In this document: positions 11,530 through 21,972 of the stretch, piece after piece | Position numbering within the stretch: position 1 is the first letter of the stretch | Layout of the letters: every line of letters starts with the position of its first letter | From: Thermodesulfobacteriota bacterium | GTDB lineage: Bacteria; Desulfobacterota_D; UBA1144; Nemesobacterales; UBA2774 | Assembly: GCA_965216785.1 (NCBI GenBank) | Contig: OZ244197.1 | Span: 256,001-320,000 of the forward strand | DNA length: 64,000 bases | Reading direction: 5' to 3' | Made by a program: the position numbers and the translations under genes | Notes under the pieces: model-generated | The model's database searches: none | Told to the model about the DNA's origin: nothing | The model's input: only the letters and a program-made list of their open reading frames with translations

Positions 11530-12321
11530 TTAAACGCCTCCTAATTTACTACTACAAAAAACTATACCCTGCTCATGCACCAAAGTGCCTACATTAATAT
11601 CGTGGCATTGGGTAGGAATACTTTTCTGCAATTGAAATTTATATGAGATACCTATCCTTCTCTGTAGGGGTATAGAGTGTGCGAATCGGTCGTAGAACCC
11701 TTTACCGTACCCGAGCCTCGAGCCCGCGCTGTCAAATGCGACTCCGGGGAGCAGGAGAAGATCAAGCTCGCCGGGCTGAACCCGAGGAGCGCCGGAGTCA
11801 GGCTCCGGAACCCCGAATTTTCCCGGAGTAAGCTCGTCTAGACCAAACACCCTGTGAAAGGATAGGGAACTGCCTGAAACTTTTGGGAAATAAACCTCTT
11901 TTCCCAATTCTAATGCTTTAAAGAAAATGGAGTCGGTCCTTACCTCGCCTCTAATGGGAGAGTATAGAGCGATCCTATGAGATATCTTGAAACTATCTAA
12001 AGAGGTTAATTTTAGATATATTCCGTAACTCTTTTTTACTTGGTCACTTAAGGAGAGTGCAGAGCGCTCAAGCAACACACGCTCACGAATACTGTCTTTA
12101 TCTTCTGAAAGACCGCCGTTCCCTTTACTTACTCTTGAGAAAAACTCCTTTTCATTACATACATCATCTGTACTTGAATGTATCTTCCAGTTCTTCTGAT
12201 CTAAGTTCTTCTCTTTGAATACCTTCTTGATAACTAAAGGGTTCGCTGTCTTTAAGGGATCCTTCCAATATTTGAACCAATCTATTTGATCTCTGCTCAG
12301 ATGCGTCTTTGAATTCATCAA
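11530..12321 (-). CDS. ygfA: 5-formyltetrahydrofolate cyclo-ligase (YgfA); true start unresolved, see findings
   Basis: KDSIRERV, ALYSPIRGEV, GKFGVPEP and LLPGVAFD..GSRLGYGKGFYDR motifs; zapA-ygfA-rny gene order. Confidence 0.88.
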   Translation of the reverse strand: MMNSKTHLSRDQIDWFKYWKDPLKTANPLVIKKVFKEKNLDQKNWKIHSSTDDVCNEKEFFSRVSKGNGGLSEDKDSIRERVLLERSALSLSDQVKKSYGIYLKLTSLDSFKISHRIALYSPIRGEVRTDSIFFKALELGKEVYFPKVSGSSLSFHRVFGLDELTPGKFGVPEPDSGAPRVQPGELDLLLLPGVAFDSAGSRLGYGKGFYDRFAHSIPLQRRIGISYKFQLQKSIPTQCHDINVGTLVHEQGIVFCSSKLGGV

Positions 12322-12526
12322 AGTCTCTTCCTAACTTGAAGTAATCATCGGTAATCTTGAGCATGGCAACAAGAAATGAACGAGGTACCGCTATATTGCT
12401 CTCCTTTTCTGATATTTCTTTTACTTTTTCCTCGAGAAAAGATGCAATCTTCTGGACGTACTCTTCGTCCGCGTCGGTTTTAATAACGTACTCGGTATTT
12501 AGAAATTTTATGGTAAGCCTTTTCAT
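12164..12526 (-). CDS. zapA: Cell division protein ZapA
   Basis: TIKFLNTEYVIKTDADEEYVQKIASFLEEKV..VAMLKITDDYF pattern; gene order. Confidence 0.85.
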   Translation of the reverse strand: MKRLTIKFLNTEYVIKTDADEEYVQKIASFLEEKVKEISEKESNIAVPRSFLVAMLKITDDYFKLGRDFDEFKDASEQRSNRLVQILEGSLKDSEPFSYQEGIQREELRSEELEDTFKYR

Positions 12527-14150: not shown

Positions 14151-14525
14151 ATGTCAACCATAGGAAAGACTCAAATCACTATTATCTTTATAGCCCCTCC
14201 GGAACATGTAGCCGAAGGCGACCGCATTTTCCAAAGCCATGCTGCTTGGATGGAGAGAACACATCATAGGGATGGTGAGCTGGCACTGCTACGATACAAC
14301 ATTATCAAAGCACCCGAGCTTGAAAACCCGCTTGATCCGGGATCGGCACCGACCGGTAACACGATGTTCGTGCTGGACGAGATGTATGAAAACCAGGCCG
14401 GTCTGGACGATCACTGGAAACAAGCAGCTGAAAGCTGGGAAGACCTGGGAGCCATAGTAGAGTGGTCCAGTCAGTGCAAAGTCATAACTGCACACAACGG
14501 TGTAGCCATTCAAGGACTATGGTAA
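14151..14525 (+). CDS. Hypothetical protein, possibly dimeric alpha-beta barrel (ABM/Dabb-like)
   Basis: Strong AGGAGGT SD. FVLDEMYENQAGLDDHW resembles the E-x-Y/W...H segment of ABM folds. Confidence 0.7.
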   Translation: MSTIGKTQITIIFIAPPEHVAEGDRIFQSHAAWMERTHHRDGELALLRYNIIKAPELENPLDPGSAPTGNTMFVLDEMYENQAGLDDHWKQAAESWEDLGAIVEWSSQCKVITAHNGVAIQGLW

Positions 14526-14754: not shown

Positions 14755-15402
14755 ATGAAGTATATCATTCTACTTGCCGTTATTACTGCTCTATCATTTC
14801 AGCTTACCGGGTGTGAGAACCAAAGCAGCGCCCAGAGCGAGCAAGACGAGCTGGACCTGCTCAGGATCAATACTGATCTTACCCTAATCGGGATATACGC
14901 CCCCGAGGGCTCTGACCTGCTACTATGCAATCAGCCTTTTGCCCTATGTGCTGCCGCATTTTGCGAGGTTGAGCCCGGAGGTGAAATGGCCACCTGCACC
15001 TGCCCGGTGCTCACTGGGCCCGCAATCGGTGACCCTGAGGCTATGAGCATGTTCCAGCCCGAAGGTGGGAGCGGTTGCGACGCACCTGAGGAGCCCTTTA
15101 GCATATGGTCTTTCTTTCAGCCCAGGGAAAGAATCCCGCAAGCACCTAATTTTATGAACGAGCCTGCTCTCGGCATGGCCTGTCCTGCAGGGAACTTTGT
15201 AAACTGTTTCGGCTATCCATGTAAATGGGATGGGCAGTCGAGTCTTGCCACATGCACCTGTGAGGTTCTGAGTGGAGAATTCGGCACTCAAGCAGGGAAC
15301 TGCGACCCGAGTAACTGCGATGATAGCCCTTTTGGCATACCTTCAGGAGCCTCAACGCTCAACCCTTCGTTTGTGGCCCCTACAATGAGCTGCGGATTTT
15401 AG
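14755..15402 (+). CDS. Cysteine-rich lipoprotein of unknown function
   Basis: GGAGGAG SD, lipobox LTGC, 14 further Cys and two ATCTC repeats. Confidence 0.8.
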   Translation: MKYIILLAVITALSFQLTGCENQSSAQSEQDELDLLRINTDLTLIGIYAPEGSDLLLCNQPFALCAAAFCEVEPGGEMATCTCPVLTGPAIGDPEAMSMFQPEGGSGCDAPEEPFSIWSFFQPRERIPQAPNFMNEPALGMACPAGNFVNCFGYPCKWDGQSSLATCTCEVLSGEFGTQAGNCDPSNCDDSPFGIPSGASTLNPSFVAPTMSCGF

Positions 15403-17538: not shown

Positions 17539-17732
17539 TCTATCGTCCTCAGTCGGAAATTATACAGCAGCAGAGGCGGCATTTAAATAAATCCGTAAAT
17601 TCACTAAAGCCCTTTTAAGTATTGAACTATTCGGCAGCCAAAATACGCTAATGCTATTAACTTCAACTTGTCTACCATGCAAGATGCTGTCATTACTTGA
17701 TAATATAATTGTGCACTTGCTAACAAATATGC

Positions 17733-17760
17733 TTGACAAAACCGGGCGGCATTTTATTAT
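17733..17760 (+). promoter_or_regulatory. Sigma70-type promoter of the pha operon
   Basis: TTGACA-N16-TATTAT. Confidence 0.55.
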
Positions 17761-17940: not shown

Positions 17941-18324
17941 TTGGAAAAGAAAAAGGATCACGAACAGCTTTATTACTTCGGCTATTTCAAGAAGCTCTAC
18001 GAGTCGTGGGAAGAATCCACCAATGTGATGATGGATATCTGGCTCAACAGCCCCTATATGGAAAGGGCCTTCGATAAGTCTCTCGAATTTAAGAATTACG
18101 TACAAAACTTCATGGAAGACACTTTGGAAAGCCGCTGCGAACCAAAGAAAGCACAGAAAGAAAGTAAAAACGATAAAGATAAACTAGTAGAATATATAGA
18201 TTCCCTCGAAGATAAAATACGCGAGCTCGAAGACAAAGTGAAGGAGCTCGAATCCAAACCCAAGAAAAAGACCCCGACGAGAAGGAAAAAGACAAAAGAC
18301 GCGGCGGTTAAGGAGACTAAATAG
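17941..18324 (+). CDS. PhaE/PhaR-like small protein with coiled coil and basic tail
   Basis: AGGGAG SD 6 nt before TTG 17941. FKKLYESWEESTNVMMDIWLNSP aligns with the next gene; tail is KPKKKTPTRRKKTK. Confidence 0.65.
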   Translation: MEKKKDHEQLYYFGYFKKLYESWEESTNVMMDIWLNSPYMERAFDKSLEFKNYVQNFMEDTLESRCEPKKAQKESKNDKDKLVEYIDSLEDKIRELEDKVKELESKPKKKTPTRRKKTKDAAVKETK

Positions 18325-18758
18325 TGAGCGATAAATCCTCTGATCAGGCAGAGCAGTACAAGAACTTTTACCAAGCCTGGGAAAAAACTATGACCGAGGC
18401 TATGGACATCTGGAAATCTAATCCTCTATTTAACGAAGACGCTAAGGAAGGCGCCGATAGCGCGGCTCATTACAAGAAGTTCTATGAAACATGGGAAAAG
18501 TCTTCATCAGAGATTATGGAGAAGTGGGTCAGCAGCCCTCTATTCGCCGCTAATATCGGTAAGGCTGTAGAGAAATCCTCGGAACTTAAGAAATATTTCG
18601 ACGAAGCGGTAGAAAAGACTCTTAAGAATATGAGGTTTCCGACAAAGAACGATGTAGACAGATTACACGCGTCCATCAACAACCTTGAAGAGAAGATAAA
18701 CGATCTCAATGATAAGATAGACGATATGAATAAACCAAGGAAAACATCAAGGAAATAG
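18324..18758 (+). CDS. PHA synthase accessory subunit (PhaE/PhaR-like)
   Basis: AAGGAG SD. LKNMRFPTKNDVDRLHASINNLEEKI matches the PhaE / class IV PhaR C-terminal PT-x-x-D motif; lies directly before phaC. Confidence 0.8.
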   Translation: MSDKSSDQAEQYKNFYQAWEKTMTEAMDIWKSNPLFNEDAKEGADSAAHYKKFYETWEKSSSEIMEKWVSSPLFAANIGKAVEKSSELKKYFDEAVEKTLKNMRFPTKNDVDRLHASINNLEEKINDLNDKIDDMNKPRKTSRK

Positions 18759-18785
18759 ACAAATTTAGGAGACGGGAAAAATTCG

Positions 18786-19853
18786 ATGACAACTAATCAA
18801 TTAGACGCAACAATGCAGGAAGCGGAGAAATTAAGGGATAAACTAAGCAAGGTAATAGAGCTTACAGTGACAGATCCGCCTGATGTCAAGATCGGAACAA
18901 CTCCCCATGACGTCGTATTTACGGAGAACAAACTCCGTCTGCTTCATTACCGACCGGTAGTGAAAAACCCAACGGCAACTCCTCTGGTAATGATTTTCGC
19001 GCTCATCAACCGTCCATCCATACTTGACCTTAAACCCGGAAGAAGTGTAGTCGAAGTACTTCTCAATAAAGGTATAGATCTTTATTTAATTGACTGGGGA
19101 GCTCCGGGGGATGAGGACAAGAACCTGGACATGGATCACTATATAAACAGATACATAAAGAAAGTCGTCGAGAAGGTGAAGAGAATTTCCGGATCCGATA
19201 AGGTCAGCATTCTGGGTTATTGCATGGGCGGCACTATGTCTGCTATATATACGGCGCTTTACCCCGAAGATGTAAAGAACCTGATTCTACTCACAGCCGG
19301 AATAGACTATAAAGTTGACGGGACACTCGCTCTATGGGGAGATAAAGAGAACTTTAATGTAGATAAGTTCGTGGATGCCCACGGCAACGTTCCGCCCGAG
19401 TTTTTACAGTCGGGATTCCTGTTTTTAAAACCTGTAGAAAACATGATCTCTAAGTATGTGAATTTTTATGAGAACGTAGAGAATGAGGCTTTTGTTGACA
19501 ACTTTCTCGCAATGGAGAAATGGCTTAACGATAACATTGCGGTCCCGGGAGAAGTGTTCAGAGAATTCATAAAATATCTTTACCAGGAAAACCAGCTCGT
19601 TGAAAATAAGCTAGAAGTAAACGGTAAGCTGGTAGAGCTAAAAAATATTAAATGCTCTGTAATGAATCTAATTGCGGAGCGCGACCATCTAGTGCCGCCT
19701 GAATCGAGCATTGGCTTCAATGATCTAATATCTAGTAAAGATAAAGAGACCATTGTTTTCCCCTCAGGGCATATTGGGCTTTCGGTTAGCAGTAAGTCCT
19801 TAAAAGGTCTCTGGCCTGATGTAGCCGATTGGATAATAAAAAGATCAAAGTAA
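18786..19853 (+). CDS. phaC: Poly(3-hydroxyalkanoate) synthase PhaC, class III/IV size
   Basis: 355 aa; GTTPHDVV, ALINRPSILDL, YLIDWG, lipase box GYCMGG, catalytic Asp (ERDHLVP) and His (GHIG). Confidence 0.95.
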   Translation: MTTNQLDATMQEAEKLRDKLSKVIELTVTDPPDVKIGTTPHDVVFTENKLRLLHYRPVVKNPTATPLVMIFALINRPSILDLKPGRSVVEVLLNKGIDLYLIDWGAPGDEDKNLDMDHYINRYIKKVVEKVKRISGSDKVSILGYCMGGTMSAIYTALYPEDVKNLILLTAGIDYKVDGTLALWGDKENFNVDKFVDAHGNVPPEFLQSGFLFLKPVENMISKYVNFYENVENEAFVDNFLAMEKWLNDNIAVPGEVFREFIKYLYQENQLVENKLEVNGKLVELKNIKCSVMNLIAERDHLVPPESSIGFNDLISSKDKETIVFPSGHIGLSVSSKSLKGLWPDVADWIIKRSK

Positions 19854-19942: not shown

Positions 19943-20698
19943 TTAAATGTAGTTTCCGCCGTTAATCCTGAGAGTAACACCGGTAATCCAGCTTGCGGCT
20001 GGAGAGCAAAGATATACAGTGGCTAGAGCAATTTCCTCAGGAGTTCCAAACCTTCCTAGTGGAATATCTTTCTTGATAGTCTCTCTTATGTCTGCAGGTA
20101 CTGTGCCCAGCATGTCTGTCTCCACAAACCCCGGAGCAATCGCGTTTACGCGGACATTGCTTGCGGCAAGCTCTCTTGCCATAGTTTTTGTAAAACCGAT
20201 TATGCCCGCCTTTGTAGACGCATAGTTAGCCTGCCCGATATTCCCCATTTCACCGATAACCGAGGATACGGAAACAATTACCCCACCCTCTTTAGATAGT
20301 GGGTCTATAACTGCTTTCGTACAATTAAAAACGCTCGAAAGATTGGTGTGTATAACTTCCTCCCACTGCTCGTATGTCATCCTTTTTAACATGCGGTCTC
20401 TGTTGACTCCAGCATTATTTATAAGGATATCGACTTTCCCGAAATGGTTCATTGCAGCTTTGCCGATATTCTGAGCCTGCTGGAAATTCCCGACGTTGGC
20501 CCTAACCGTAATGCATTTCCTGCCGAGTTTCTCAATCTCTTTTTTGACTTTATCGGCTTCCTTATCGCTTCTTGAGTAATTAAGTAATATGTCTGCGCCC
20601 GCTTCGGCTAAACCAAGAGCTATTGCTTTCCCTATGCCTCTTGACCCGCCTGTCACGACAGCAACCTTACCGCTCAAATCGTACATTTGCTCTAACAT
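19943..20698 (-). CDS. Acetoacetyl-CoA / 3-oxoacyl reductase (PhaB/FabG-like SDR)
   Basis: TGGSRGIG, NNAG, GNIGQANYASTK and APGFVETDM motifs; adjacent to phaC. Confidence 0.85.
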   Translation of the reverse strand: MLEQMYDLSGKVAVVTGGSRGIGKAIALGLAEAGADILLNYSRSDKEADKVKKEIEKLGRKCITVRANVGNFQQAQNIGKAAMNHFGKVDILINNAGVNRDRMLKRMTYEQWEEVIHTNLSSVFNCTKAVIDPLSKEGGVIVSVSSVIGEMGNIGQANYASTKAGIIGFTKTMARELAASNVRVNAIAPGFVETDMLGTVPADIRETIKKDIPLGRFGTPEEIALATVYLCSPAASWITGVTLRINGGNYI

Positions 20699-20948: not shown

Positions 20949-21734
20949 TTACTCTCCTGTGAAAGAAGGCTCTCTCTTTTCGAGGAACGACTGCATGCCC
21001 TCGACCCGATCTGCCGAGTCAAAACAAAGGGACACGAGAGTCTTTTCAAGAAGAAGCGCTTTTTGGAGGTCCATTTCAGAGCCCGCATTAATTGCGGTCT
21101 TTGATAGTCTTACCGCCAGAGGCCCCCTCTTAGCTATCGAGCCCGCAAGTGCGAGCGCCTCTGCCATGATATCGTCGTGCGGTACTATTTTTTCTACGAG
21201 ACCTATGCGAAGAGCCTCCTCGGCGCCTACCATCTCCCCCGTAAACACAAGCTCCTTGGTCTTTCCGAGCCCGAGTACCCTGGTGATCCTCTGAGTGCCT
21301 CCCCAGCCCGGAAATATCCCCAGCTTAACCTCGGGGAAACCCATCTTTGCTTTTTCAGACGCGATACGTATATCACAGGCAAGCGCCAGCTCACAGCCCC
21401 CGCCCAGGGCATAGCCGTTCACAGCGGCAATAGACGGGCATGGATCGTCTTCCAAAAGCGCGTAAACCTTGTGTGCATAGTCCACATAGTGCTTAAACTC
21501 TTTTGTGCTCATACTATTCATCTGCGCTATATCAGCGCCTGCGACAAAGGCTTTGTCTCCCGCGCCAGTAACTATTAACGCTTTAAGATCTTCTTCCGGA
21601 AGCGCCTCTTCAAAAAACTTCCCGAGCTCTTTTAATGTTTCCCAATTAAGAGCATTCAGCACTTTGGGGCGGTTTATGCTTAAAACCCCGATTCCGTCTT
21701 CTTTTTTTTCATAAGTAATATTTTCAAATGACAT
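20949..21734 (-). CDS. Enoyl-CoA hydratase (crotonase)
   Basis: NRPKVLNAL, FVAGADI, NGYALGGGCELALACD and PEVKLGIFPGWGGTQR; both catalytic Glu present. Confidence 0.93.
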   Translation of the reverse strand: MSFENITYEKKEDGIGVLSINRPKVLNALNWETLKELGKFFEEALPEEDLKALIVTGAGDKAFVAGADIAQMNSMSTKEFKHYVDYAHKVYALLEDDPCPSIAAVNGYALGGGCELALACDIRIASEKAKMGFPEVKLGIFPGWGGTQRITRVLGLGKTKELVFTGEMVGAEEALRIGLVEKIVPHDDIMAEALALAGSIAKRGPLAVRLSKTAINAGSEMDLQKALLLEKTLVSLCFDSADRVEGMQSFLEKREPSFTGE

Positions 21735-21972
21735 TTCACGCCTCCTGTCCCGTTTGATAAGATATTAATACAGGGTCAGAGGGGCTTGTCAACGGGTTTT
21801 CTTAGCAGATGCGAAATGAGCTTCTAAATCGTTATCAGGTTCTAATTCACTCCGCCTCATAAATTCGGACGCGTAAATAATAAAGTGGCGACTGGATAAA
21901 AAATCGGTTAATATTTTCCACGTTGCTGAATTTATTTCTAAGCTACAATCCCTAAACATTACGGAGGTTAGT

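Follow-up and report, generated by a model that had tools for sequence, protein, structure and literature searches.

The Class III synthases of PHA have been described with one PhaE partner in the available portions of three accounts (PMC8312272, 10.1101/693432, PMC7137286), and the role of PhaE is poorly understood. The locus analyzed here places two related small genes before phaC and so raises the question of what the additional protein does. In the window, the whole 64,000-nucleotide stretch of DNA that was analyzed, gene 1 (17941-18324, forward strand) begins with TTG behind an upstream GGAG and encodes 127 residues, and gene 2 (18324-18758, forward strand) begins with GTG and encodes 144. 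The one-base overlap between them (TAGTG) and the intact phaC downstream (18786-19853, forward strand; 355 residues, catalytic triad present), both noted in an earlier sequence-only reading, are borne out. A sigma-70-type promoter, TTGACA-16-TATTAT (17733-17760, forward strand; 11 of 12 consensus matches), precedes the operon and is an element kept in relatives. Just upstream of its -35 box lies a palindrome-like operator, YGCA-NN-TGCD (17712-17721, forward strand), the likely site of the PhaR repressor. Behind phaC follow, on the reverse strand, a short-chain reductase gene (19943-20698) and a crotonase (enoyl-CoA hydratase) gene (20949-21734) with its own operator motif and -35 box upstream (21787-21813, reverse strand). 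The reductase scores as an SDR, short of the curated cut-offs for PhaB and FabG; synteny and its joint loss with phaC in all 4 genus-g2 genomes that were tested make it the likely PhaB. A structured RNA in the 180-nucleotide leader was considered and rejected (z-score 0.51, no Rfam match there, unconserved beyond the genus).

PhaC exceeds the TIGR01836 cut-off (417 versus 365.3 bits), which places it in class III; it contains a lipase box, its 355 residues fit the size of about 40 kDa expected for the class, and none of the 22 aligned orthologs departs from its triad of C146, D300, and H329. The search against PhaE models proposed from the sequence alone proved positive for gene 2, which passes the gathering score of PF09712 (38 versus 25.7 bits) in an alignment confined to the C-terminal third of the model (positions 195-309 of 311). 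Gene 2 also passes PF05597, and several of its orthologs carry the NCBI name PhaE; at 144 residues it stays below the cut-off for full-length PhaE (TIGR01834, 38.3 versus 154.95 bits). The two partners had been called PhaE/PhaR-like, and only the first half of that label holds. The class IV PhaR subunit of Bacillus (TIGR02132) shows a weak likeness to the helix-coil module of gene 2 (E = 1.4e-6) far under its cut-off (28.3 versus 148.4 bits) and has no match to the window's gene 1, and the synthase is class III. The locus thus shares with class III PhaEC systems a short PhaC over the cut-off, the lipase box, the Cys-Asp-His triad, and a PF09712 gene directly upstream, and differs in that gene 2 covers only the C-terminal third of that profile and is preceded by a diverged second copy. 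Available parts of two sources give PhaE as 20-40 kDa, and as 20 kDa in haloarchaea (PMC8312272, PMC7137286). Gene 2 is likely a working, unusually short PhaE subunit, which would activate PhaC. Solved structures matched by the search included no class III synthase chain, and the gene-2 profile retrieved generic coiled coils only.

Genes 1 and 2 are PhaE-type paralogs, as had been held. Their alignment spans 102 columns and shows 36% identity (E = 1e-17), and the profile-profile comparison reaches 99.7%, a match through which gene 1 qualifies as a homolog of the PhaE C-terminal module. The window's gene 1 itself has no significant match in Pfam or NCBIfam, PF09712 included; PF09712 weakly matches 5 of 30 gene-1 orthologs (best E = 0.0012), and a full-length PhaE (P0039) is among the proteins found with the gene-1 profile. 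The motif of 24 residues described in three copies is present once in gene 1 (17986-18057), as an amphipathic aromatic helix, and twice in gene 2 (18357-18428 and 18471-18542, the latter being the copy that aligns with gene 1; all forward strand), with 9, 11, and 13 of 24 residues shared. The internal helix repeat of gene 2 scores 82, and none of 1000 shuffles scored above 50. The further matching segments quoted for both proteins, and the gene-1 tail, all occur in the sequence. A quick tree groups genes 1 and 2 with a support of 99, one long-branch outgroup row falling inside, and places gene 1 in a clade with a support of 92 and longer branches, a topology consistent with an old duplication and subsequent faster change of gene 1.

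The P-T/S-K box, which in gene 2 precedes the coiled coil (18630-18653, forward strand), is found in 24 of 24 gene-2 orthologs versus 1 of 30 gene-1 orthologs. The reported loss of PT from gene 1 is therefore correct for the window and not quite general, as that one ortholog has an intact box and most of the others a Pro; the six-residue insertion beside the lost PT occurs only in the window's genus. The Lys/Arg-rich tail of gene 1 (18256-18321, forward strand; 10 Lys or Arg in the last 20 residues) is likewise real, with the qualification that gene 2 also has a short basic end; the rule used to call a basic tail is passed by 28 of 30 gene-1 proteins versus 1 of 24 gene-2 proteins. The model of gene 1 predicts helices at residues 2-35, 38-66, and 69-105 followed by a disordered tail, with pLDDT under 50 at residues 109-127 and a pTM of 0.30 that leaves the packing unsettled. 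A Foldseek search with this model gave no match at E up to 0.001, and the ESM Atlas returned leads below 0.9 only, with one cluster containing 12% PF09712. Complex prediction for PhaC, gene 2, and gene 1, in which residues 1-108 of gene 1 were scored, yielded a score of 0.02, a value that speaks neither for nor against such a complex.

Small PhaE modules are not confined to this locus. The gene-1 profile finds a wide family of stand-alone PhaE C-terminal modules of 100-200 residues; many match PF09712 among the 53 scanned of the 150 listed, and 22 of 78 stand-alone mini-PhaE proteins that pass the filter used have basic tails. At both outgroup loci that reach phaC (L117 and L118, metagenome loci from outside the group), a lone mini-PhaE with a single module stands before a class III-type phaC, and a phasin-like gene is also present. 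Since tailed stand-alone modules are common and single mini-PhaE genes occur in outgroup loci, neither feature is new, and the tandem pair is what sets this locus apart. The suggestion of an undescribed PHA architecture survives to that extent: no report of two tandem phaE genes, or of a phaE paralog without phaC, was found in a literature search that covered subscription journals thinly.

The gene 1-gene 2-phaC order is conserved in 38 of 120 genomes of the phylum (Ca. Dadabacteria), all of them unfinished or MAG-type assemblies. Adjacent genes 1 and 2 always lie beside phaC (38/38, with phaC in pieces in G002, G034, and G100), gene 2 is never found at the locus without gene 1 (38/38), and the two genes overlap in 21 of the 24 loci examined, which fits a joint complex. 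The reading frame of gene 1 is open in all 30 orthologs aligned. The gene changes faster than gene 2, and in streamlined families it is either shortened or was not found; in family f5, it and the PhaR repressor are both strongly diverged. From the 52 genomes listed for gene 1, two were set aside: G067, whose match (E = 7e-4) covers the coiled coil alone, and G049, whose mini-PhaE is a separate one that lies in another context. Full-length gene 1 is accompanied by phaC in 38 of 48 genomes, the other 10 having no TIGR01836 match.

Genus g2 (10 genomes, 79-98% complete) keeps gene 1 without the synthase. Neither a class III phaC (TIGR01836) nor a phasin-like gene is found in any of the 10 genomes, gene 2 is not found in the genus, and a phaB ortholog is missing from 4 of 4 genomes tested. 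A class I synthase was not detected in 4 of 4 tested g2 genomes beyond one weak 56-residue match, DUF3141 was found in 0 of 4 phaC-less genomes, and a search for wax-ester/TAG synthase, as a possible substitute lipid store, gave no match in g2 and none in the controls either and so carries no information; a very divergent synthase is conceivable in these unfinished or MAG-type assemblies. Gene 1, basic tail included, is kept in 9 of the 10 genomes, and the tenth also has no ccsA match. Because ccsA, gene 1, crotonase, and FKBP genes run contiguously on long contigs in three g2 loci, the loss at the locus is not an assembly gap. At L066, L067, and L068 in this genus, the crotonase gene has the opposite orientation to that seen in other genera and lies downstream of gene 1 on the same strand. 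The genus is nested among phaC-positive genera, so its lack of phaC represents a loss; starred branches of the tree, which contains all but one of the 23 rows planned for it, force two such losses, the second of which covers G038 and G058.

Gene 1 is under strong constraint in g2, with a median dN/dS of 0.041 (17 unsaturated of 36 pairs from 9 genomes) and a value of 0.021 in the motif region; synonymous sites are near-saturated (mean pS 0.74). Its neighbors ccsA and crotonase give 0.065 and 0.061 in the same genus, and gene 1 gives 0.060 and 0.057 in two phaC-positive genera; these values come from simple codon counting over non-independent pairs with partly trimmed tails. The constraint on gene 1 in g2 thus equals that on its neighbors and that in genera with phaC. 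The prospect that gene 1 would prove absent or decaying in relatives is not borne out in g2, where its copies are intact and constrained. Its retention under purifying selection indicates a selected function without a detectable PHA system, and the earlier view that gene 1 has diverged in role from gene 2 is upheld. It follows that neither a third synthase subunit nor a granule tether can be its only role.

The distribution of the PhaR repressor (PF07879) tracks that of gene 1. The repressor is found in 47 of the 48 genomes with full-length gene 1 and in 9 of the 10 g2 genomes, and where it is not found, gene 1 is either cut to about 65 residues (G038 and G058) or not found. Those two remnants have no coiled coil or tail, and neither PhaR nor phaC was found in their genomes. 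Five PhaR-positive genomes are without gene 1, four of them also without a ccsA match, and in these four the locus is probably unassembled; in the fifth, G052, a recombinase gene comes after ccsA. Syntenic gene-1-like frames of 64-66 residues precede a dodecin gene at L101 (5856-6056, reverse strand) and L102 (5876-6070, reverse strand); G054, in which phaC and PhaR were not found, has a gene-1-like cut-off end before a dodecin gene (L149, 6609-6680, reverse strand).

The operator YGCA-NN-TGCD stands directly before the -35 boxes of the pha operon, the crotonase gene, and two phasin-like paralogs, and its copy before the operon is conserved in relatives. Its half-sites match the PhaR motif of S. 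meliloti, given as YGCR-N-YGCR in the available text of one study (PMC12542648), and the spacer here is one base longer; the element is on these grounds a putative PhaR site. The pattern was derived from these promoters, so that counts there are partly by construction, and g2 sites were not used. It occurs four to five times per genome in 4 g2 genomes and 0 times in controls, 0-1 times in 5 PhaR-less genomes, and once and not at all in two f5 genomes. The g2 matches precede genes for a sigma-70 factor, serA, metK, and an SLT transglycosylase. Examples are at L127:1501, L137:1501, L123:1501, and L125:1501, and PhaR itself is encoded in L104, L105, and L110. Gene 1 lies directly behind ccsA in g2, and none of the operator matches in the 4 genomes precedes it. 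A PhaR regulon thus seems, by these motif counts, to survive without PHA and alongside gene 1.

The explanation we prefer, to which as a whole we give slightly less than an even chance, is that gene 2 is the working PhaE and that gene 1 is an old duplicate with a polymer-independent job, for which the role of an adaptor to PhaR and DNA is the most plausible candidate. Its components differ in strength. That gene 2 is the PhaE and that gene 1 has a PHA-independent function is quite probable; that gene 1 acts as a partner of the PhaR repressor is possible and on balance doubtful; and that this partner arose from a duplication of the synthase subunit dating to the base of Dadabacteria is a little more doubtful still. 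The PhaE gene would have been duplicated long ago, with gene 2 kept as the synthase subunit and gene 1 repurposed as a helical adaptor alongside the repressor. Gene 1 would contact DNA through its basic tail and, where granules exist, may in addition use its coiled coil to pair with gene 2, by analogy with PhaF and PhaI. Binding of gene 1 to PhaR or DNA is suggested by co-retention and by precedent: in the accessible parts of the respective reports, PhaR regulates central metabolism without PHB (PMC12542648) and PhaF binds the regulator PhaD directly (PMC7590123). Comparison of the gene-1 profile with the C-terminus of the PhaR repressor gives a weak 54%, equaled by gene 2 at 52%. The position of gene 1 in g2, behind ccsA and with no operator match before it, speaks against the partnership. 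So does the persistence of the 65-residue core in the PhaR-less G038 and G058, which means that this conserved core does not strictly depend on PhaR; the co-occurrence, which reflects few independent events, may also stem from genome streamlining.

If the adaptor explanation is true, the PhaR regulon (sigma-70 factor, serA, metK, and lytic transglycosylase) is still controlled after the loss of PHA, the titrant of PhaR. The locus provides a natural minimal PhaE of 144 residues together with a paralog uncoupled from the synthase by evolution, and genus g2 amounts to a natural deletion of phaC in which the paralog, PhaR, and the operator motifs are retained. Two questions become directly testable: the part of PhaE responsible for activating PhaC, and the signal to which PhaR responds in a PHA-less cell.

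The main rival, which we consider unlikely, accepts a function independent of PHA and assigns gene 1 instead to lipids or membranes, as a PhaE-derived adaptor like BMFP/YqiC whose partner is neither PHA nor PhaR and whose co-retention with PhaR is incidental. No part of gene 1 is better conserved than the aromatic amphipathic helix, the core persists without PhaR in G038 and G058, with a cut-off end in G054, and the BMFP profile PF04380 weakly matches 5 of 30 orthologs (E up to 0.01) and two distant mini-PhaE proteins at about 1e-6 to 1e-7. All of these matches, however, fall below the curated cut-off, both Trp residues are gone from most of the remnants, which also lack the coiled coil and the tail and are perhaps in decay, and the partner is hypothetical.

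Less probable again is a granule-to-nucleoid tether of the PhaF/PhaM type, a role that gene 1 may hold in second place and not as its sole one. The predicted amphipathic helices, zipper, and disordered basic tail of gene 1 match the layout described for PhaF, which binds both granules and DNA according to the available portion of one source (PMC9049629); PF05597 weakly matches 12 of 30 gene-1 orthologs, a PAKKA motif occurs in 2 of 30, and AAKP occurs in 1 of 30. Like Pseudomonas PhaI and PhaF (PF05597), the pair consists of tandem related helical proteins, one of them basic-tailed, but here it derives from a class III synthase subunit, its tail of only about 20 residues in the window has neither PAKKA nor AAKP repeats, and its tailed member is retained where no PHA system is detectable. 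Cupriavidus PhaM is also a small synthase-linked protein with a Lys-rich C-terminus, yet is given in the same partial source as a 32-kDa protein with PAKKA motifs that serves a class I synthase (PMC9049629); no model named PhaM was matched in NCBIfam or Pfam. The window protein has no PF05597 match, basic tails are common on stand-alone mini-PhaE proteins, and genomes in which neither a synthase nor a phasin-like gene was found still retain the helices and the tail. The tether proposed in the sequence-only reading is accordingly right about the layout and too narrow about the function.

That reading also offered an obligatory three-component synthase in which PhaC needs both small proteins, a possibility that we regard as improbable and that fails as the only role of gene 1, kept as it is in g2 without phaC. 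The constant company of gene 1 wherever gene 2 occurs at the locus, the probable translational coupling at the 21 overlapping loci, and the helix-coil module kept in both proteins favor it. Against these stand the unchanged selection on gene 1 after phaC loss, the loss of the P-T/S-K box in 29 of 30 gene-1 proteins, and the single one-module PhaE that precedes phaC at L117 and L118. A functionless relic carried along by inertia is very improbable: despite faster evolution than gene 2 and truncation or absence in streamlined families, the low g2 dN/dS of about 0.04 at near-saturated synonymous sites and the open frame in all 30 orthologs largely refute it for family f1.

Several observations concern the surroundings of the locus. 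A gene of about 138 codons whose product is weakly phasin-like (Phasin_2, E = 5e-4 at best) lies upstream in 16 of 24 loci; this unannotated family (for example, L034:3113-3529) reaches as many as 9 matches in one genome, and its loss accompanies that of phaC. The window's lineage has no such gene at the locus, and three paralogs lie elsewhere in its genome, near positions 2410129 (forward), 1691032 (reverse), and 2256797 (forward) of C1. Membership of gene 1 in this local family was considered and discarded, as no profile likeness was found. G052 carries a serine-recombinase element after ccsA (L152:2374-3809), where the pha operon normally sits; it and G042 have stand-alone phaC copies, and neither of the two small genes was found in these genomes. 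Family f7 genomes carry additional class III phaC copies without a PhaE-like neighbor (L146:5472-6527, L147:3432-4493, and L148:4338-5399).

The gene for 6S RNA is often located between zapA and the 5-formyl-THF cyclo-ligase gene. These two genes adjoin in the window (11530-12526), where no Rfam match for 6S RNA was obtained at E up to 1. The genes prfA and ccsA, adjacent in relatives, are separated in the window by two open reading frames without a Pfam match (14151-14525 and 14755-15402), the second of which encodes a Cys-rich protein that appears lipoprotein-like by eye.
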